Shown here piece after piece: positions 21,276 through 30,632 of a stretch of DNA of 30,633 bases; position 1 is the first letter of the stretch, and each line of letters starts with the position of its first letter. Source of the stretch: an uncultured Candidatus Saccharibacteria bacterium (GTDB lineage Bacteria; Patescibacteriota; Minisyncoccia; Phycocordibacterales; SBAW01); NCBI GenBank assembly GCA_964641145.1, contig CAZXKI010000001.1, positions 1 through 30,633 on the forward strand. The letters run 5' to 3'. The notes beneath the pieces were generated by a model. It had not been told where the DNA came from and did no database searches. It saw only the letters and a list, made by a program, of their open reading frames with translations. Both the position numbers and the translations under genes were made by a program.

Positions 21276-22913
21276 TCACAAAAATTTCATTTTAAAACGC
21301 TCCTTGTGAAGAGTGACTGAAATCTGGCGCAACATGTCTTCGGCCACCCGATCTTCGGTAGTATGTTCGCCCAATTCTGCCTCAAATCTAAAGCGCAGCG
21401 TTTCTGCCTGCGGTTTAAGCCGCTCCGTAAGTGACGCAACTTCCCCCTCACCCATTACCTCAACCAGTTTGGCGTATATGTCCGACTGAGGACCAAAATG
21501 GAAGATAAGCATGCCGGCTTTGCGCTCAAGAGGCATAAGCGCAGTATCTTCGAGAGCCTGCACCTTCACTTCAGGCTCTTCAGACACCTCGCGTAACACC
21601 GGGTGTTTAGCGACTTCTGCAATCACAGCTGCCTCTGGCACCCGCAAACGCTCTGCAACAATCCGCGCAAAGTGCGCCTGCTCTATCTTGCTGCCCATGG
21701 CGGATATGAGCGGAAGTATGCTGGCCTCTACCAAACGCTGGTAGGCTCGCTCGTCTTTAGCTTGCGGCTTAAGTGCATCTAGAAAGAATTCAACTGCGGT
21801 CTTACTGGTGCGCACCGCAGCTTTAAGAAGTTCTGGATTCTCGCGCGCCACATCGGCAGGGTCTTTACCCTCGGGGAATACCGGTACCTTTACCTCAAAC
21901 CCTGCACTAAAAGCCATTAACGCGCTTTTAAGCCCACTGCGCACGCCGGCCTGGTCGGCATCGAGTGCAAGCACCAGGCGCTTAGAAAGCCGCCCCAAAA
22001 GCGACAGATGTTCAACCGTAAGCGCGGTACCCGAAAGCGCAACGGTAAAATGCAGGCCGGACTGATGTGCCAGGATAAGGTCAAACTGCCCTTCTACCAA
22101 CAAAATGCAGTCGAGTTTACGGATAACTCCTCGCGTCACGGCCTGCCTGCCGGCAGGCAGGTCGAGACCATACAATGTCTTAGACTTTTTAAACAACAAG
22201 GTCTCAGGAGAGTTAACATACTTGGCCGGCTCGGTGTCATCTTTCTGGCCAGGCACTTTTTCAAAAAACCTGCCCGAAACCGCAATAGGATGACCTGCAT
22301 TGTCGAAGATGGGGAACATAATACGCCCCCGAAAACGGTCAAATATGTCTCCCGGCTTTTTCTCTGACTTTACGGCAAATCCCGCATCAACAATGTCGTC
22401 CTTACTAAAACCCTGCCCCACCAAGTGTTTTGATAACTCTTCCCATGCGGCAGGCGCATACCCTAAGCGCCACTGCGAAGCAGTTTCTGGGAGCACGCCA
22501 CGAGTGTGCAAATATTCCTGCACATCTGTACGCTCGACAAGACGGGCTTCAAAAAACGTTACCGCAGCATCAGTTACCTGCCGCAAGCGTTCTTCTTTAT
22601 CTTTTTTCTCGGGGTCGGGAGCTGTTGTGCGCTCAAGTTTGACCCCCGCCTTCTCTGCCAGCTGGCGAAGCACAGTCGGGAAATCACTCCCCTCTATCTT
22701 TTGCACAAAACTAAAAATATCGCCACGCTCACCGCAGCCAAAGCACATGTAGGTGCCGCGCTCGGGGCTTAGATGAAAGCTGGGCGTCTTTTCTTTATGA
22801 AAGGGGCAGCGCGCCGTGTAGTTGCGGCCCGCCTTTTTGAGTTGAACGTATTGCCCCACTATATCCACAATAGAAAGTCGGTCTTTAATCTTTTCTACAT
22901 CACCGGAAGCCAT
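21276..22913 (-). CDS. dnaG: DNA primase
   Basis: Zn-finger CPFH...CFGC, FRGRIMFPI, KYVNSPET, TOPRIM VEGQFD and LALDADQAG, and GKDPAD. Directly upstream of rpoD. Confidence 0.97.
   Translation of the reverse strand: MASGDVEKIKDRLSIVDIVGQYVQLKKAGRNYTARCPFHKEKTPSFHLSPERGTYMCFGCGERGDIFSFVQKIEGSDFPTVLRQLAEKAGVKLERTTAPDPEKKDKEERLRQVTDAAVTFFEARLVERTDVQEYLHTRGVLPETASQWRLGYAPAAWEELSKHLVGQGFSKDDIVDAGFAVKSEKKPGDIFDRFRGRIMFPIFDNAGHPIAVSGRFFEKVPGQKDDTEPAKYVNSPETLLFKKSKTLYGLDLPAGRQAVTRGVIRKLDCILLVEGQFDLILAHQSGLHFTVALSGTALTVEHLSLLGRLSKRLVLALDADQAGVRSGLKSALMAFSAGFEVKVPVFPEGKDPADVARENPELLKAAVRTSKTAVEFFLDALKPQAKDERAYQRLVEASILPLISAMGSKIEQAHFARIVAERLRVPEAAVIAEVAKHPVLREVSEEPEVKVQALEDTALMPLERKAGMLIFHFGPQSDIYAKLVEVMGEGEVASLTERLKPQAETLRFRFEAELGEHTTEDRVAEDMLRQISVTLHKERFKMKFL
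22142..22161. repeat. Perfect 20-bp palindrome CCTGCCTGCCGGCAGGCAGG inside dnaG
   Basis: Exact self-complementary sequence. Read in the dnaG frame it contributes LPAGRQ. Confidence 0.9.
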
Positions 22914-22955
22914 ACGTAACGGTTAGTGTAGCCCTCTTGCCTCCTTTTATCCACA

Positions 22956-22984
22956 TTGACAGGATTATGCCGTTTTAGTACACA
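22956..22984 (+). promoter_or_regulatory. Sigma70 promoter, leader copy A
   Basis: TTGACA, 17 nt, TACACA, then GAATAT and ATG. The same flanks occur in copy C. Confidence 0.65.
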
Positions 22985-22990
22985 GAATAT

Positions 22991-23142
22991 ATGAGCTACA
23001 TGTGCTGGACAACAAAGGCAACACGCAAAGTCACCCTCAACAGTGACGCACATGCGCCTATTGTCCAGCCGCGGTAGTTTGATCTCAACCAAACATGCAT
23101 CGAAACACCCCGGCTGAACAAAAGCCGGGTATTTGTTTCAGC
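22991..23142 (+). ncRNA. Putative structured leader RNA, copy A (contains a 28-codon uORF at 22991-23077)
   Basis: Long stem (GCTGGACAA 23004-23012 / TTGTCCAGC 23061-23069; AGGC/GCCT; GTCAC/GTGAC), then AGCCGCGG, GTTTGATCTC and a terminator hairpin. Colinear with 23908-24060. Confidence 0.55.
23102..23142. repeat. Repeat copy 1: terminator with overlapping alternative hairpin
   Basis: The 24-mer ACCCCGGCTGAACAAAAGCCGGGT (23107-23130) is identical to 24024-24047. Both copies are followed by TTTGTTTCAGC. Confidence 0.9.
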
Positions 23143-23185
23143 GCATAAGATAGTTCTTTTTAGGCGACCATAAAGGAGACTGGAG

Positions 23186-23467
23186 ATGGAAATCATCGAG
23201 CCGCCGCCGAGACTTAGGCTCGACAGCGTGCGCCCCTTGGTTGAGTACCTGCTTGAGCTGTCTCGCGACTGCAGCGACCGAAGGCTCACGTGGGATGAAG
23301 ATGCGCGTGCATGCGAGATCCTTCTCGAGCTTCCCGAGACCTCAAACGCCGCATACGTGCGCACTAAGATACTGCGCTACATCGACCCCGAGTGCCGGCC
23401 GTTTAGAACCTTGACCACCTGGTTCTGCATTGCCCGCACCATTGGAGACCTTCTTCGGAAGGGTTAG
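23186..23467 (+). CDS. 93-aa hypothetical protein
   Basis: AAAGGAG and GGAG SD sites before the ATG and a terminator right after the stop. No family recognised. Confidence 0.7.
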   Translation: MEIIEPPPRLRLDSVRPLVEYLLELSRDCSDRRLTWDEDARACEILLELPETSNAAYVRTKILRYIDPECRPFRTLTTWFCIARTIGDLLRKG

Positions 23468-23473
23468 GTACTT

Positions 23474-23503
23474 CCGGCGCCCTCACCAGGGCGCCGGGTT
23501 TCT
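23474..23503 (+). terminator. Intrinsic terminator
   Basis: 10-bp stem CCGGCGCCCT/AGGGCGCCGG with a CACC loop, followed by GTTTCT. Confidence 0.75.
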
Positions 23504-23510
23504 GTATGTA

Positions 23511-23539
23511 TTGACAATACACGTATTTGAGTGTATAAA
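23511..23539 (+). promoter_or_regulatory. Sigma70 promoter of the 73-aa gene
   Basis: TTGACA, 17 nt, TATAAA: close to consensus. Confidence 0.75.
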
Positions 23540-23580
23540 TAATTTGTACGTTCACCAGAAATAAAAGGGAGTTTCTACCC

Positions 23581-23802
23581 ATGTCTGACATGTCGGAACC
23601 CTTGCAGGAAGCAAAGCTGCTGCGCATGCCCCCTTTTGTCGCATACGTGGGACTGTTCGGAAACGCAGGGATGGCGAGTCTCTGTTTCGGCCTCTACACG
23701 CAGTCGCTCTGGTTCGGACTTGGTGTTCTTTCCGTTCTGACCATGATCATCACGCTGGTTTCGGTAGTCGCCGAGAGCATCGAGAAAGCACGGAGGAACT
23801 GA
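23581..23802 (+). CDS. 73-aa two-TM membrane protein
   Basis: AAAAGGGAG SD and two hydrophobic segments, with its own promoter and terminator. Confidence 0.7.
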   Translation: MSDMSEPLQEAKLLRMPPFVAYVGLFGNAGMASLCFGLYTQSLWFGLGVLSVLTMIITLVSVVAESIEKARRN

Positions 23803-23823
23803 GACAGAACGAGCGGCAACGCC

Positions 23824-23865
23824 AATCGGTGCGAGGGACAGACTCCCCCGCGCCGATTTCTTTTT
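23824..23865 (+). terminator. Intrinsic terminator
   Basis: AATCGGTGCG/CGCGCCGATT outer stem with an inner GGGA/TCCC pairing, followed by TCTTTTT. Confidence 0.7.
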
Positions 23866-23872
23866 ATATACA

Positions 23873-23901
23873 TTGACAGAAAGGTTCGTGCGGGTTATAG
23901 A
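23873..23901 (+). promoter_or_regulatory. Sigma70 promoter, leader copy C
   Basis: TTGACA, 17 nt, TATAGA, then GAATAT and ATG, the same spacing as copy A. Confidence 0.7.
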
Positions 23902-23907
23902 GAATAT

Positions 23908-24060
23908 ATGCGACACCATCGCGGACAGATGAATAGCTCTAAGTGCGCCACCCTCTGGGTCGGCTCTTTAGCTGTTTGTTTAGCCGCGGCTGTTTAATCT
24001 CCTTTCTCAAGATTGATTGAAAAACCCCGGCTGAACAAAAGCCGGGTCTTTTGTTTCAGC
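23908..24060 (+). ncRNA. Putative structured leader RNA, copy C (contains a 29-codon uORF at 23908-23997)
   Basis: Long stem (GGACAG/TTGTTT, AATAGCT/AGCTGTT, GCC-ACCC/GGGT-C-GGC), then AGCCGCGG, GTTTAATCTC and the shared terminator element. Confidence 0.55.
24019..24060. repeat. Repeat copy 2: terminator with overlapping alternative hairpin
   Basis: GAAAAACCCCGGCTGAACAAAAGCCGGGTCTTTTGTTTCAGC, near-identical to 23102-23142. Confidence 0.9.
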
Positions 24061-24090
24061 AAAACTGTTCTTTCACAAAGGGAGTGCGAA

Positions 24091-24741
24091 ATGACGCCTG
24101 TTTTTCTAGACCACCCTCAAAGCTCATCCTGTCTGCTGGTCATGGGCAAAGAGCATGCTGACTTGATCCACAGTCTGCAGAACGACCCAGAAACGCGACA
24201 GTATCTGACCCGCTATATTCCGGAGACGCACGCAGAGGTCATTGAGTGGATCGAGAAACACGACTCCAACAACATTGTGCTTACCGTTGCTACGAAACCG
24301 GATAAGACGCCCATAGGAACGATGGGCTTGCACCGGATTGACTGGAGGAACCGGCGCGCCACGACCGGCGCTGTCCTCTCTCTCGCGAGCTGCAACAAAG
24401 GGTACGGGAGCCACGCCAAGATGCTCCTCTTAGCCCACGCATTTCTGACGCTAGGGCTCAACAAAGTCGAGTCGCGGGCGCATGCCACAAACGAGCGGAG
24501 CATCGCCTATAGCAAAAAGTGCGGCTACGAAGAAGTTGCCAGGCTAAGAAGACACACCTTCCAAAACGGTGAGTGGATCGACGAAGTAATCTTGGAAGTG
24601 CACGCAAGTACGTGGAAACCGCTCTGGAAGCAATTCGAACAGGGCGAGTTCAACAAAAAGCCTACACCTGAACCCTTCCCTGGCCACTATGATGCGTGCA
24701 GCTTGGGCTGGGACGTCTGGCAAGACGGCTGCGGCAGATAA
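24091..24741 (+). CDS. GNAT N-acetyltransferase, RimJ/RimL family
   Basis: IGTMGL..IDW.NRRA..G, NKGYGS, AF..LGLNKV, NERSI....KCGY and LRRH motifs. AAAGGGAG SD before ATG 24091. Confidence 0.9.
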   Translation: MTPVFLDHPQSSSCLLVMGKEHADLIHSLQNDPETRQYLTRYIPETHAEVIEWIEKHDSNNIVLTVATKPDKTPIGTMGLHRIDWRNRRATTGAVLSLASCNKGYGSHAKMLLLAHAFLTLGLNKVESRAHATNERSIAYSKKCGYEEVARLRRHTFQNGEWIDEVILEVHASTWKPLWKQFEQGEFNKKPTPEPFPGHYDACSLGWDVWQDGCGR

Positions 24742-25043: not shown

Positions 25044-28000
25044 TTACTGCACTTCGGTCTTCTCTACTGCAGGTACTTCTACCTGGCGCGGAGAAAACTT
25101 GTGGATCAACTCCTGCTTTGGAGACCCCTTAAAGCCGGTACCAGCTGGGATCAAGCGGCCGATGATCACGTTCTCTTTCAAGCCTTCGAGCTTGTCCATA
25201 GCGCCACCAATCGATGCCTTGATGAGCATGCGGGTTGTGTTCTGGAACGACGCTGCAGAGAGGAAGCTTGCGCGAGAGAGCGACACATCAAGAATACCCA
25301 TGATGAGACCCTCGCCCTTTGCCGGCTCGCCGCCTGCGGCCTTAATGCGCTCGTTAGTTGCAGACAAGTCAGTCTCAGGGACCACGTCTCCTATAGAGTA
25401 CTCGGTGGTACCGATTACAGTGATCTTAACACGGCTGAACATCTGGCGAACGATCACTTCAAGGTGCTTGATCGAGATGTTGGCGCCCTGGAGTTCGTAG
25501 ATCTTCACGATTTCAGAGATGATGTATGCGAGAGTCTTCTCCTTGCCAGCGTACTTGAAGAGCTCGGTGAGGTCGGCTGAGCCGTCGGTCAAGAACTGAC
25601 CCTTCTCTACCTTGTCTCCTACTTTTACAAGCGCCACACGGCGGAAGTGCACTTCATACTCGATAGCGTCTTTGCCTTTCTTGCCAGCCTTCATGTGCTC
25701 GATATCCGGAGCGACAACAATGATCTTCTCTTTGCCGTCGTCTTTGATGTCGATCACTTCACCGCCAACCGTAGCAATAACTGCCGGGTTACGAGGTGCG
25801 CGGCGCTCAAAGATTTCTTCAACACGAGGGAGACCCTGCGTAATGTCGCCACCTACAGAAGCTGCACCGCCGGCGTGGAAGGTGCGCATAGTGAGCTGGG
25901 TGCCCGGCTCACCGATAGCCTGTGCTGCAACGGTGCCCACCGCCTCACCGAGCGCAACCGGCTTCATGGTGCCCAAGTCTGCGCCGTAGCACTTCTGACA
26001 AACGCCCTTAAATGACTTACATGCAACTGGAGAGCGAACATAGGCTGCCGGTACGCCGAGCTCTTCAATGCGCTTTGCGTCTGCGTGCGTAATGAAGTGG
26101 CCTTTCTTGTATTCAGTTTTGCCGTTTACCTCGATATCTTCTGCCAAGTAGCGGCCGCCGATATTCTGCGCGAGGAAGGTGCCGATACCAGAAGCTGATT
26201 CACGCGTAATAGTGAGACCGTCTTTGGTGCCGCAGTCTTCTTCAGTTACTACTACGTCCTGTGCTACGTCGAAGAGGCGGCGCGTGAGGTACCCTGCTTT
26301 TGCAGTGTTGAGCGCGGTGTCAGAGAGACCTTTGCGAGAGCCGTGGGTCGTAATGAAGTACTCAATCGGTGAGAGACCTTCTTTCATTGACTTCGTAATT
26401 GGGAACTCGATCGCCTCGCCAGTCGGAGAAGCAATGAGACCTTTCATACCAGCCATCTGAGTAACCTGAGCTACCGAACCGCGGGCACCAGACTTAAGCA
26501 TGTCTGAAACCGGGCCGTTAACCGCAAGAGTGCCGGGCATAAGCTTTTCTACCTCTGACTTAGCGCCGTGCCAGACTTCGATGTTCATGCGGTAACGCTC
26601 TTCCTCTGAAAGGAGGCCGTCGTGCCAGTGCTTCATGATTTCATCTGACTTCTGCTGAGCTGCAGCCACAATATCTGCCTTCTCTTTCGGAATCTTGATG
26701 TCGTCGAGCGACCAGGTAATACCTGACTGGGTGACGTAGCGGAAGCCGAACGTCTTAATGCGATCGAGAATTTCAGGAACCTTCTCAAGGCCGTAGCGGA
26801 CAATGAGGTCATCTACGAGTTTCGAGAGGCTCTTCTTATCAATTGGATAGTTTACGAATGGATAGTCACTTGGGAACACCGTGTTGAAGAGGAGGCGGCC
26901 CACCGTGGTCTCAAAGAGCTGACCACCGAACTGTGCGTACTTCTCCTTCTCTGACGGCATAACCTTGATCTTTGCTTGGAAGCCCACCACACCGTGGTCG
27001 TATGCAAGGATAGCGGCGTTCGGAGAGTGGAAGGCGCGACCTTCACCCTTCATGCCATCAACCTCTTTGGTCATCCAGTATGAGCCGAGCAAGATGTCGA
27101 GAAGCTTGGTTGCAATAACGGCTTCGCCGGAACCTGGCTTCAAGATGTTGCGGTGCGCAGCCATAATCTCGCGAGCCTCGGTCTGAGCCTCTGGAGAGAG
27201 CGGCACGTGTACGGCCATCTGGTCGCCGTCGAAGTCTGCGTTAAAGGCTGGACATACCATCGGGTGGAGCTGGATAGCATTGCCTTCGATCAGGATCGGC
27301 TGGAATGCCTGGATACCAAGGCGGTGCAAGGTAGGTGCGCGGTTAAGAAGCACATACTTGTCGCGGATGATCTCTTCGAGAATTGCCCACACCTCCGGCA
27401 CGCCTTCGTCGATAAGACGACCAGCGCCACGGATGTTGTATGCGAGCTCCTTCTCAAGCAGTTTACCGATCACGAATGGGCGGAAGAGTTCCAACGCCAT
27501 GTGCTTAGGCAGACCGCACTGGTTGAGCTTGAGTTCAGGACCAACCACGATTACCGAGCGGCCCGAGTAGTCTACGCGCTTACCAAGAAGGTTCTGGCGG
27601 AAGAGACCGTGCTTACCCTTGAGGTTGTCAGAAAGGGACTTGAGCGGACGAGTGCGAGCTTGAGTGGTTGCAGAGTATGCCGCACCGCCATGGCGGATTG
27701 AGTTGTCGATAAGGGCGTCCACTGCCTCCTGGAGAATGCGCTTCTCGTTGCGGAGAATCACGTCAGGTGCGGCAATTTCAATAAGCTTCTTCAAGCGATT
27801 GTTGCGGTTGATAACGCGGCGATAGAGGTCGTTGACGTCTGATGTCGCGTGGCGGCCACCGTCGAGCGCAACCATTGGGCGAAGTCCTGGTGGGATAACC
27901 GGAATGCGAGTAAGGAACATCCACTCTGGGCGTACATTTGCACGCACCATTGAGCGGAGTGTTGAGAGGCGCTTAGAAAGTTTTTCGCGCTCTGCAGCAC

Positions 28001-30632
28001 CGGCATCCTCAAGCGCAGCAGCTGTTTCTTCTACCATCTGCTTAAGGTCGAGACCTTTGCAGAGTTCGTGGATAGCTTCTGCACCAATGCCTGCCTCGAA
28101 CATAGCGCCGTACTTAATGGCGTAGCGGTGATAGCGAGGCTCGTCGAGCACTGCGCCAACATGAATAGCTTCGATGTCGCGTTTAGCTTCGAGGAAGAGT
28201 TCCTTCATCTTCTCCTTCGACTTCTCGTCTACCAAGTTCTTCATCTTGGTCTTGTATTCAACTTCAAGCTCGCCGACGATGCGCTCTTTTTCTGTCTTGT
28301 GCACCGTCGTTACGATGTAGCCGGCGAAGTACACCACTTTTTCAAGCTCACCGCCTGAGATACCAAGCACCATCGAAAGGCGCGACGGGATAGCGCGGAG
28401 GAACCATACGTGCGCAACCGGTACTGCAAGGTCTACGTGACCCATGCGCTCGCGGCGGACAATGGCACGGGTGATTTCCACACCGCACTTCTCGCAGGTA
28501 ATACCCTTGTAGCGGATGCCGCGGTATTTGCCGCAGTAACATTCGTAATCTTTTTCAGGACCAAAGATCTTTTCGTCAAAGAGTGAGTTCTTTTCTGGAC
28601 GCTGAGTGCGGTAGTTAATAGTTTCTGGTTTGGTTACCTCGCCGTGTGACCACTCGAGGATGCGCTCAGGCGAAGCTGGGCGGATGCGGACATTGTCGAA
28701 GTCGGCAACATCAGCGCCAGGAGTCTTGCGGAGTGCTGAGACGCGCTCAGAACCGCGCATAAGCTCGATGTCGAGTGCGAGACCGCGCAGGGTGTGCAAG
28801 AGCACGTTAAATGATGCCGGTGCGTAGTGGTGAGAAATGCGCTCGCCGCGAACAATCGCGTCAAAGGCAGCCGAGCGGCCCTGGATGTCGTCAGACTTAA
28901 TCGTGAGCATCTCGCGCAAGGTATACGCTGCGCCATAGCCAAGAAGCGCCCACACTTCCATTTCTCCGAAGCGCTGACCACCGCCCTGAGCTTTACCGCC
29001 CAAAGGCTGCTGGGTAATAAGCGAGTACGGTCCGATAGAGCGCATGTGGATCTTGTCCTCTACCATGTGGTGGAGCTTCAAGATGTACATGTAACCAACT
29101 GAGACGTCCTGTTCGAACTTCTCACCGGTGCGGCCATCGAAGAGCGTCATTTTGCCGCTCTCGTTAAAGCCTGCTTTCTTAAGCTCTTCGCGGATCTCTC
29201 CTTCGGTTGCGCCTGCAAACGGCGGGCAGATTGCCTGATAGTTAAGTGAGTTTGCAGCAAGACCAAGGTGGAGTTCCAAAATCTGACCGAGGTTCATGCG
29301 GCTTGGCACGCCGAGTGGAGTAAGGATCACGTCTACCGGGCGACCATCTGCCATGTATGGCATGTCTTCTTCAGGCAAGATGCGTGAGATAACACCCTTG
29401 TTGCCGTGACGGCCGGCGAGTTTGTCGCCTACTGATACCGCGCGGAGCTGTGCGATCTCAATGTGGATGCGCTTGATGATGCCCGACTCGAGGTTGTGGC
29501 CCGCTTCGCGAGAAAATACTTTAACGCCAATGATGCGGCCGCGCTTGCCGTTCTCCATGCGGAGTGAAGAGTCTTTAACATCGCGAGCCTTGTCGCCGAA
29601 GATCGAACGCAGAAGGCGCTCTTCTGGGGTCAGCTGAGTCTCGCCCTTTGGAGTGATCTTGCCGACAAGAATGTCGCCAGGACGCACTTCTGAGCCGACA
29701 CGGACAACGCCGTCTTCGTCCAAGTTGCGGAGCTTTGTTTCAGATACGTTCGGAATATCGTGGGTCGTCTCTTCCGGTCCGAGCTTAGTGTCACGGACGT
29801 TGCAGACAAACTCCTCAATGTGAATTGAAGAGAACTTAGAGTTTTTAACCATGCGCTCAGAGATAATGATGGCATCTTCGTAGTTGGCGCCAGACCAGCA
29901 CATAAATGCAACGAGACAGTTCTGACCAAGCGCAAGCTGGCCTTGGTCTGAGGTTGATGTGTCTGCAAGAAGATCGCCTTTCTTAACCTTGTCGCCTACT
30001 GAAACAGTCGGGCGCTGGTGAAGGGCGGTAAAGCCGTTAGTGCGAACAAAGTTTACGAGGCTGTAAGTAGTCTCTTTGCCCTTGGCATTCTTAACCTTTA
30101 CATGTTTGCCGTCGACAGCAGAAACTACTCCATCTTCGAGTGAGTAGTGGAGACGGCCAGTGTCTTTAGCAGCGCGCTCTTCGATACCTGTTGCCACAAG
30201 CGGAGCCTCAGGAACGATACATGGCGTAGACTGCTTCTGCATGTTCGAACCCATGAGAGAGCGGTTAGCGTCGTCGTGCTCAAGGAACGGAATCATCGAG
30301 GTTGCGATAGAAAATGGCTGCTCTGGCGCAACGTCTATATATTTAACGTCTTTGCGGGGAACACGGGTCGGGCCGCCGTTGAGGCGTACTTCTACCTGCT
30401 CATCAATAATGGAGCCGTCGTCTTTAAGAAGAACCCCTGCGTGAGCGATAGGCTCCTTCTCTTCCTCTGCAGCGTTCAAGTAGACAACCTCTTTGGTAAC
30501 CTTGCCGTCAACAACACGAGCATACGGAGTCTCGATCATGCCGAACTCGTTCAAACGGGCAAACTGCGCCAAACGCAAAATAAGACCGATGTTCGGACCT
30601 TCAGGAGTATGGATCGGACAGAGGCGGCCGTA
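25044..30632 (-). CDS. rpoBC: Fused RNA polymerase beta-beta' subunit (5' part lies beyond the window end)
   Basis: One open frame from 30632 to the stop at 25044. RpoB motifs ([53 protein letters not shown]) run into RpoC motifs ([18 protein letters not shown]...[32 protein letters not shown]-like [38 protein letters not shown]). Confidence 0.95.

Follow-up and report, generated by a model that had tools for sequence, protein, structure and literature searches.

Paired leader elements in an uncultured Saccharibacteria genome as candidate ribosome-dependent transcription attenuators built on leaderless open reading frames

In a 30,633-nucleotide (nt) stretch of DNA from an uncultured Candidatus Saccharibacteria bacterium (contig CAZXKI010000001.1 of assembly GCA_964641145.1, positions 1 to 30,633; hereafter the window), two diverged copies of a leader element, here copy A and copy B, precede two protein-coding genes. 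Each copy is probably (about 0.74, by our estimate) a ribosome-dependent, i.e., leader-peptide, transcription attenuator built on a leaderless open reading frame (ORF). In both copies this leader ORF starts at the predicted transcription start, crosses a long 5′ hairpin (P1), and ends inside the 5′ strand of an antiterminator helix. The element appears to be an undescribed family of an established switch type, widespread in bacteria of the candidate phyla radiation (CPR). An earlier reading of the same DNA (the original prediction) had proposed a conserved, functional leader equipped with a promoter and terminator of its own, serving as an attenuator, a riboswitch-like element, or a small RNA (sRNA). 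The functional leader is borne out by homologues and covariation, and the attenuator is the option that stands; the riboswitch-like option does not, given the competing helices, the variable apex of P1, and the lack of an Rfam match.

Copy A (22956–23185) and copy B (23873–24090) are colinear, as had been claimed, with 77% column identity in a pairwise alignment. A repeat finder recovered blocks of 43 and 21 nt shared between them at a spacing of 917 nt, and a search of the whole 806-kb assembly returned these two copies as the only ones. The promoter elements, spacers, and start codons (Table 1), an invariant GAATAT between the −10 box and the ATG, and the motifs GC(T)GGACA at +14 and CACCCTC at +42, read directly from both copies, all lie where the original prediction had placed them. 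The ATG of copy A falls 7 nt past the −10 box, i.e., at the expected start of transcription. The long 5′ stem described earlier is likewise present in both copies (z = −2.3 and −3.4 versus shuffled sequences for the first ∼85 nt), a terminator scan recovered both terminator hairpins, and the terminated transcript, previously put at ∼146 nt, comes to 148 to 149 nt.

Each copy exhibits the 1:2, 2:3, 3:4 layout of an attenuator, with P1 as the anti-antiterminator, an antiterminator of 19 to 22 bp, and an intrinsic terminator. The ∼148-nt RNAs of both copies fold as the long 5′ hairpin plus the terminator (z = −4.4 and −3.7). When copies A and B were folded together with a homologue from another genome of the genus (G019), RNAalifold preferred a long helix, TGTYYAGCCGCGGTAGTTTGAT:ATCGAAACACCCCGGCTGAACA, over both the hairpin and the terminator; in this model, that helix is the antiterminator. 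Its 5′ strand, composed of TTGTYYAGCCGCGG and GTTTRAT, is also the 3′ strand of the long hairpin, and its 3′ strand, which contains GAAAMACCCCGGCTGAAC, doubles as the 5′ arm of the terminator together with the loop. Because the antiterminator shares strands with P1 and with the terminator, the conserved blocks noted in the original prediction correspond to segments 2, 3, and 4 of an attenuator. Predicted stability decreases from P1 to the antiterminator to the terminator in both copies, and the family medians follow the same order (−33, −21, and −15 kcal/mol).

Table 1. Window coordinates of the two leader copies, their component features, and the genes behind them. SD, Shine-Dalgarno sequence; aa, amino acids.
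Feature	Position	Strand	Details
Copy A promoter	22956..22990	+	−35 TTGACA 22956–22961; 17-nt spacer; −10 TACACA 22979–22984; GAATAT to start
Copy A leader ORF	22991..23077	+	ATG at 22991; 28 codons + TAG (23075–23077); no SD upstream
Copy A P1, anti-antiterminator hairpin (segment 1:segment 2)	22993..23080	+	minimum free energy (MFE) fold; −36.0 kcal/mol, z = −5.3
Copy A antiterminator	23062..23120	+	5′ strand 23062–23083 (holds stop codon); 3′ strand 23099–23120; RNAalifold; −21.5 kcal/mol, z = −5.5
Copy A intrinsic terminator	23109..23138	+	stem-loop 23109–23129; U-tract 23130–23138; −13.3 kcal/mol
Copy A post-terminator elements	23132..23178	+	segment 5 TTTGTTTCAGC 23132–23142; GTTCTTT 23153–23159; SD AAAGGAG 23172–23178
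Gene under copy A	23186..23467	+	93-aa ORF, function unassigned
Copy B promoter	23873..23907	+	−35 TTGACA 23873–23878; 17-nt spacer; −10 TATAGA 23896–23901; then GAATAT
Copy B leader ORF	23908..23997	+	ATG at 23908; 29 codons + TAA (23995–23997)
Copy B P1, anti-antiterminator hairpin	23912..23994	+	fold; −35.6 kcal/mol, z = −3.4
Copy B antiterminator	23977..24037	+	5′ strand 23977–23998 (holds stop codon); 3′ strand 24016–24037; RNAalifold; −23.8 kcal/mol, z = −5.4
Copy B intrinsic terminator	24026..24056	+	stem-loop 24026–24046; U-tract 24047–24056; −13.3 kcal/mol
Copy B post-terminator elements	24049..24084	+	segment 5 TTTTGTTTCAGC 24049–24060; GTTCTTT 24067–24073; SD AAAGGGAG 24077–24084
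Gene under copy B	24091..24741	+	216-aa GNAT acetyltransferase; Pfam Acetyltransf_3, E = 3e-20

The covariance-model search of CPR genomes proposed along with the original prediction yielded further homologues. A BLAST-type DNA search of 60 relatives had returned a single true one, in G019, where the dnaG-GNAT-rpoBC locus is syntenic and the GNAT orthologue lies behind the same leader. Of the 79 other genomes of the genus, 14 contained the element according to a core covariance model derived from three sequences. A second model, trained on 14 sequences, gave hits (E ≤ 0.01) in 39 of the 150 other genomes sampled from the order; these hits span dozens of families, and the weakest of them are doubtful. 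A phylum-wide sample gave weak matches only, two of which (L085 and L086) show the full architecture on inspection and are thus convincing cases outside the order. When the search was anchored on the GNAT protein instead, the closest loci came from metagenome-assembled genomes (MAGs) titled uncultured Candidatus Saccharibacteria, and further model matches preceded the GNAT orthologues of MAGs with the titles Candidatus Microgenomatus (E = 2e-21) and Candidatus Paceibacterota. Most GNAT loci negative with the model still exhibit a small ORF near the promoter and, behind it, a terminator. The same arrangement precedes a CPR-type GNAT (44% identical) at locus L093 (CAYLHT010000004.1), in a MAG titled 'uncultured Gammaproteobacteria bacterium'; this contig may be mis-binned, or the element may have been transferred.

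Covariation supports the antiterminator. Across 35 model-aligned homologues, 89% of cells are paired and 14 of the 19 base pairs vary in both partners (88 cells), while none of 500 shuffles did as well and slid registers reached at most 47% pairing. The arms of the terminator covary with each other and with segment 2, as in the series CCCGGC, CCUCGGC, CCCCAUGGC, CCGUGGC, and CCCGAC. A terminator, i.e., a GC-rich hairpin with a U-tract, is present in 40 of 41 homologues at −8 to −25 kcal/mol; a strict detection rule overlooked seven sequences, six of which were regained with a looser rule, while the terminator of L039 was set by hand and none was found in L078. The region L078:1501–1640 holds only a GCUGAACA/UGUUCAGC hairpin that abuts the Shine-Dalgarno (SD) sequence and start codon of the GNAT gene, and this leader may be a purely translational form of the switch. 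Since the register of P1 differs among lineages, folding each sequence separately is the better test of this hairpin, and P1 reached a median of −33 kcal/mol and z = −3.9 in this way, with 34 of 40 sequences below −2. Even in a single fixed register of a MAFFT alignment, 64% of P1 positions are paired, as compared to 34 to 42% in slid controls. The apical part of P1 is hypervariable among homologues in both length and sequence.

These homologues also bear on the suggestion in the original prediction that the two copies might be a decaying duplication without function. Their occurrence as just two copies in the genome, one of them before a near-orphan ORF, would fit such decay, yet covarying homologues extend across dozens of families and several CPR classes. 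Conservation thus already refutes this explanation, and we consider its probability negligible.

The leader ORF is the second line of evidence. All 41 homologues have a −35 box (TTGACA in 32) and, 16 to 18 nt on, a −10 box; 4 to 9 nt beyond it (6 nt in 24 sequences) comes an ATG or, in one case, a GTG. This geometry makes the A of the ATG the expected transcription start, and an SD-like motif precedes the leader ORF in just three of the 41. The frame is open in every homologue for 24 to 53 codons, while the other two frames close at a median of 2 and 11 codons; in dinucleotide shuffles, the frame stays open with a median probability of 0.16 per sequence, and the log10 probabilities sum to −32.8, a significance overstated by the relatedness of the sequences. 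Despite the twofold range in ORF length, the stop codon lies 21 to 33 nt (median 27) upstream of the terminator stem in the 40 sequences with a terminator, and always at or after the core of segment 2. Seven group-2 relatives of the same genus, with four different ORF lengths among them, retain N- and C-terminal peptide blocks in one frame with synonymous changes. As the ORF sits at the predicted +1 and is open in 41 of 41 homologues, the leader ORF is most likely translated, and the sensor is most likely the ribosome rather than a small molecule.

The coding character of the 5′ stem distinguishes this reading from one in which P1 is the sensor domain of a ligand-, protein-, or tRNA-binding riboswitch-like antiterminator and the ORF is incidental. 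Such an arrangement would account for the great stability of P1 (median z = −3.9) and for a shape that is kept while the sequence changes, and a riboswitch could use the terminator/antiterminator platform just as well. It is nonetheless improbable, as a conserved aptamer core is lacking: P1 is free to vary in length and sequence over its apical half, and the conserved blocks are all strands of the switching helices. An incidental ORF is also unlikely to begin at +1 in 41 of 41 homologues, remain open for 24 to 53 codons, and end 21 to 33 nt short of the terminator. The earlier view of the 5′ stem as an autonomous or ligand-binding structured RNA is accordingly not upheld. That the element belongs to no known riboswitch or T-box class, as originally stated, agrees with the Rfam scans: no family matched the whole window at the gathering score, the leader region at E up to 10, or any of 14 homologous loci, beyond matches at chance level (IRES_APC, FinP, mir-1010, SAM_alpha on the wrong strand, and BASRCI414). 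A T-box leader was rejected on two counts, i.e., the lack of a T-box match in these scans and an antiterminator that is a plain long helix without the T-box bulge.

The open frame raises a further alternative, in which the leader ORF is an independent small-protein gene with its own terminator and the downstream gene is reached by leaky read-through or from another promoter. In its favor, synonymous changes within the genus leave the peptide blocks MNHKIHEMN and SRGFCMTS intact, and leader peptides are able to act in trans (e.g., peTrpL; PMC7298713). A plain gene would, however, have no use for the three-way covariation of segments 2, 3, and 4 or for an antiterminator that spans its stop codon. 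Peptide conservation is lacking both between copies A and B and across frames, a separate promoter was not evident in the interval (mostly 35–60 nt) from terminator to SD sequence, and the element accompanies just two gene families. We therefore regard a free-standing small-protein gene as decidedly improbable.

As an attenuator, the element would operate as follows. Transcription would start at the A of the AUG and produce a leaderless RNA, on which a 70S ribosome would begin the leader ORF of 28 to 29 codons at the very 5′ end and translate it through both strands of P1 (segments 1 and 2). Segment 2 could alternatively pair with segment 3 to form the antiterminator, and segment 3 also supplies the 5′ arm and loop of the terminator (3:4). 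In the absence of a ribosome, P1 and the terminator would form and transcription would end ∼148 nt from its start (OFF). A ribosome keeping pace to the stop codon, which lies in or just past segment 2, would cover segment 2 and again leave the terminator free to form (OFF). A ribosome stalled at about codons 2 to 14 would instead cover segment 1 and release segment 2, allowing the antiterminator to form and transcription to read through (ON). Since the ON state would arise only under early stalling, the switch would report slow or stalled early elongation.

The effect of ribosome position was modeled by MFE folding of each leader, between +1 and the last position of the terminator stem, with a 28-nt ribosome footprint kept unpaired. 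In free RNA, the terminator formed in 37 of 40 sequences. With the footprint placed so that the P site lay at about codons 2 to 15, it was lost in ∼28 of 40 (at codons 2–11 in copy A and 3–14 in copy B), and it was restored with the footprint farther downstream, including at the stop codon. In this model, the leaders behave as would an attenuator for which read-through requires an early delay of the ribosome.

Several observations weigh against the attenuator reading or limit it. In the masking model, ∼10 of 40 homologues keep the terminator in the equilibrium fold at every ribosome position; these sequences have the strongest terminators, and an equilibrium fold takes no account of the antiterminator being transcribed first. 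The alignment used for covariation was fitted to the structure of the model, which favors that structure. The −10 boxes of copies A and B lack the canonical final T and were not listed by a consensus promoter scan, while homologues from other genera exhibit canonical −10 boxes at the equivalent position. Transcript data add little: a search for RNA runs with copy B and the GNAT gene listed none, and start, termination, and read-through are predictions; for the wider stretch, four DNA runs and one RNA-labeled run were listed, the latter covering 22773–22985 only. That interval, which comprises the 5′ end of dnaG and the intergenic region, matches a wastewater contig labeled RNA-Seq (probably DNA) from a relative at 95 to 99% identity; the contig ends 6 nt upstream of the copy A start codon and is uninformative on transcription.

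The remaining points on that side concern the peptide. Differences among the seven close relatives are only mildly skewed to codon position 3 (269, 275, and 320 at positions 1, 2, and 3). The peptide motifs MxxxYxQMN and L[IV]FSR[DG] (FSRD/G) coincide with strands of P1 and the antiterminator, the segment-2 core AGCCGYGG occurs in each of the reading frames (19, 11, and 5 of 35 sequences), and a change from Asn to Tyr at codon 9 has a compensating change in the facing RNA strand: this codon is AAU in 28 of 41 homologues, and where it is UAU, the partner strand UAUUCAG becomes UAUACAG. On these last three grounds, a conserved arrest peptide was rejected as unproven. No run of a single regulatory codon and no recognizable arrest motif were found in the leader ORFs, and the peptides of the window are unrelated in sequence (MSYMCW... 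in copy A, MRHHRGQMN... in copy B). Taken at the level of sequence, the peptide encoded by the leader ORF may be irrelevant.

Codons 2 to 14 of the leaders are enriched, relative to the downstream proteins, in Asn (4.1-fold), Gln (3.2-fold), and His (2.6-fold), in a scattered manner that is partly forced by P1 pairing; copies A and B have no share in the Asn richness of the homologue leaders. A speculative and, in our judgment, unlikely extension of the attenuator reading is that this Asn/Gln/His-rich segment marks a CPR-wide 'ribulon' for the charging of amide amino acid tRNAs, or a sensor of small molecules in the exit tunnel, combined with a further layer made up of a loop-tail helix and an anti-SD motif, GUUCUUU (both described below). 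If so, a tRNA-charging or small-molecule signal would induce a SpeG/ArsN-like acetyltransferase or exporter, and the loop-tail helix with its anti-SD motif could be a regulatory layer of a kind undescribed for known attenuators. Pertinent to Asn- and Gln-rich leaders, the genome contains gatB above the curated cut-off, no glnS above cut-off, and one asnS-like gene (208 bits versus a cut-off of 343), with the genes of this tRNA-amidation search at G000:C25:427–1812 and G000:C43:1227–2507 and also on G000:C104 and C40; Gln-tRNA, and perhaps Asn-tRNA, is thus probably formed via transamidation.

Downstream of the terminator, a second set of conserved elements was found (Table 1). Segment 5 pairs with the terminator loop in both copies (duplex of −10.5 kcal/mol and z = −2.7 in copy A; z = −2.8 in copy B), and across the family the final ∼3 nt of the terminator 5′ arm plus the loop are complementary to the U-tract plus CAGC (median z = −2.9; 32 of 40 below −2). 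This loop-tail helix covaries (GCUGAAC/GUUCAGC, GCUGGACGAA/UUCGUACCAGC, GCUAAAU/AUUUAGC, CUUUACA/UGUAAAG, and ACUUAC/GUAAGU, with a variant GCCUCUUACAA/UUGUAAGAGGC identified by eye in L103), tolerates G-U pairs, and at times has its partner 10 to 16 nt farther downstream. According to the folding model, it excludes the terminator and is possible in read-through RNA alone. An H-type pseudoknot with the terminator stem would probably be sterically unfavorable, and frequent G-U pairs favor pairing at the RNA level over a palindromic DNA operator. A conserved GUUCUUU lies 4 to 10 nt past the loop-tail partner and is able to pair with the SD sequence AAAGGA(G). The SD core is paired in 12 of 40 folds, and that of copy B is paired in the fold of its post-terminator region; GUUCUUU:SD pairing is plausible but weak in these models. 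Pairing of GUUCUUU with the GAAAMAC block was dismissed, as only 4 bp could be formed by hand.

The complementarity between the terminator loop and its tail could also point to an attenuated ∼148-nt RNA that acts mainly in trans as an sRNA and binds, via its terminator loop, segment 5 in read-through mRNAs or some different target. The loop and ∼3 nt of stem are indeed complementary to the U-tract plus CAGC and covary with it, and attenuator-derived sRNAs exist (e.g., rnTrpL; PMC6614838). The two strands are, however, adjacent parts of one molecule, so that pairing in cis should win; a mainly trans-acting role is very improbable, and sRNA activity would be at most an added role beside attenuation.

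The genes behind the element fall into few classes. A listing of downstream genes, also proposed earlier, gave a GNAT acetyltransferase of 185 to 222 aa (Acetyltransf_3) at 24 of 38 loci, an MFS transporter of 390 to 410 aa at 12, and a small ORF of unassigned function at 2 (copy A and G063). The GNAT acetyltransferase that the original prediction had placed under one copy is confirmed by its Pfam match for copy B. The nearest solved structures to this protein are SpeG spermidine N1-acetyltransferases (E = 4e-9), and the nearest NCBIfam models are PseH, SpeG, and ArsN1, with every match far below the curated cut-off. The best model matches of the family GNATs are PseH, SpeG, ArsN1, and AAC(6′), with curated cut-offs compared for the window GNAT alone, and the best named matches of the family MFS proteins are TetA(P), Tet(40), and HP1165 efflux. 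The product of the gene under copy A matched no Pfam or NCBIfam model, and among 5.8 billion proteins only three were found at E ≤ 0.001, the window's own being one; G063 encodes a 98-aa look-alike behind a copy-A-like leader. A strong intrinsic terminator (11-bp stem, 23473–23498) directly follows the 93-aa ORF, and copy A thus controls a single small gene that is nearly without relatives. With SpeG-like GNAT and TetA(P)-like MFS proteins as outputs, the likeliest natural signal is translation stress from ribosome-targeting compounds; the output is most likely detoxification or efflux under such stress, and antibiotic-responsive control of the window GNAT is plausible.

Two neighboring features complete the picture of the locus. 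Between the leader copies, a 73-aa hydrophobic ORF (23581–23802) without a Pfam or NCBIfam match exhibits its own near-consensus promoter (TTGACA, 17 nt, TATAAA; ∼23511–23539) and an SD sequence, AAAAGGGAG. On the minus strand, 25044–30632 is a single uninterrupted frame of at least 1862 aa with RpoB-type and then RpoC-type sequence, pointing to an apparent fusion of rpoB and rpoC; a matching RpoC tail, next to the GNAT gene, closes the G019 locus.

To our knowledge, gene regulation in CPR bacteria (Patescibacteria) is almost unknown, and few cis-regulatory elements have been described. Full-text literature searches on leaderless transcripts, attenuators, or riboswitches in Saccharibacteria or Patescibacteria turned up no description of the element. 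It constitutes a defined, alignable switch of ∼150 to 220 nt, found in about one in four of the genomes sampled from the order and also in other CPR classes. The attenuator reading implies that leaderless translation serves regulation in CPR bacteria and that transcription and translation are coupled closely enough for attenuation. For genome annotation, the element points to a small ORF that has escaped annotation and accounts for the long 'empty' stretches in front of GNAT and MFS genes.

The classical attenuators of trpL, hisL, pheL, and leuL follow a four-segment logic (1:2, 2:3, 3:4) in which a terminating ribosome masks segment 2. The present element is reminiscent of these in its four segments, in the placement of its stop codon, and in its default state of P1 plus terminator, but differs in lacking a codon run for one amino acid, in controlling nonbiosynthetic genes, and in its leaderless start. 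Closer parallels are found in Bacillus subtilis, where bmrCD and vmlR are governed by leader-peptide attenuators with an anti-antiterminator, an antiterminator, and a terminator, tlrB and ytbDE are likewise leader-peptide attenuated, and all four respond to antibiotic-induced stalling; as a second layer of control, vmlR and tlrB have a hairpin that sequesters the SD sequence and thereby silences read-through that leaks past the terminator (PMC13689557). As in bmrB-bmrCD, vmlR, tlrB, and ytbDE, an upstream ORF (uORF) here overlaps the anti-antiterminator and is followed by an antiterminator and an intrinsic terminator, and stalling on the uORF would cause read-through. The B. subtilis genes so controlled encode exporters and resistance factors. 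One of the B. subtilis outputs, ytbD, is presumably an MFS transporter. The GUUCUUU motif, able to pair with the SD sequence, resembles the SD hairpin of vmlR and tlrB. Unlike the B. subtilis attenuators, with which it shares no sequence similarity, the element has a uORF without an SD sequence at the 5′ end of the RNA, SpeG-like GNAT or TetA(P)-like MFS outputs in CPR bacteria, and a further covarying helix that joins the terminator loop to the U-tract plus CAGC.

In the mycobacterial whiB7 5′ leader, stalling on a variable uORF flips a rho-independent terminator to an antiterminator; this attenuator responds to translation stress and, depending on uORF composition, to amino acid shortage, and the whiB7 regulon includes the MFS pump Tap and the acetyltransferase Eis (PMC10274678). 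GNAT and MFS proteins are thus gene classes common to both systems. The whiB7 attenuator, however, governs a transcription factor that activates pump and acetyltransferase, whereas here each gene has its own attenuator; moreover, the whiB7 uORF is Ala-rich, while the leaders described here are rich in Asn, Gln, and His in codons 2 to 14. If the attenuator reading is correct, a GNAT acetyltransferase and an MFS exporter would form a front-line inducible response to translation stress, in parallel to the whiB7 regulon of Actinobacteria. Actinobacteria are also the hosts of cultivated Saccharibacteria. A further precedent is provided by the leaderless polycysteine small ORFs (sORFs) of mycobacteria, which sense cysteine via a Cys tract and act on translation by freeing the ribosome-binding site (bioRxiv 10.1101/834739). 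Both systems employ a leaderless sensory sORF as the first cistron, on which a stalled ribosome remodels (or, in the element described here, would remodel) the downstream RNA; the present element differs in having a canonical intrinsic terminator and no Cys tract.

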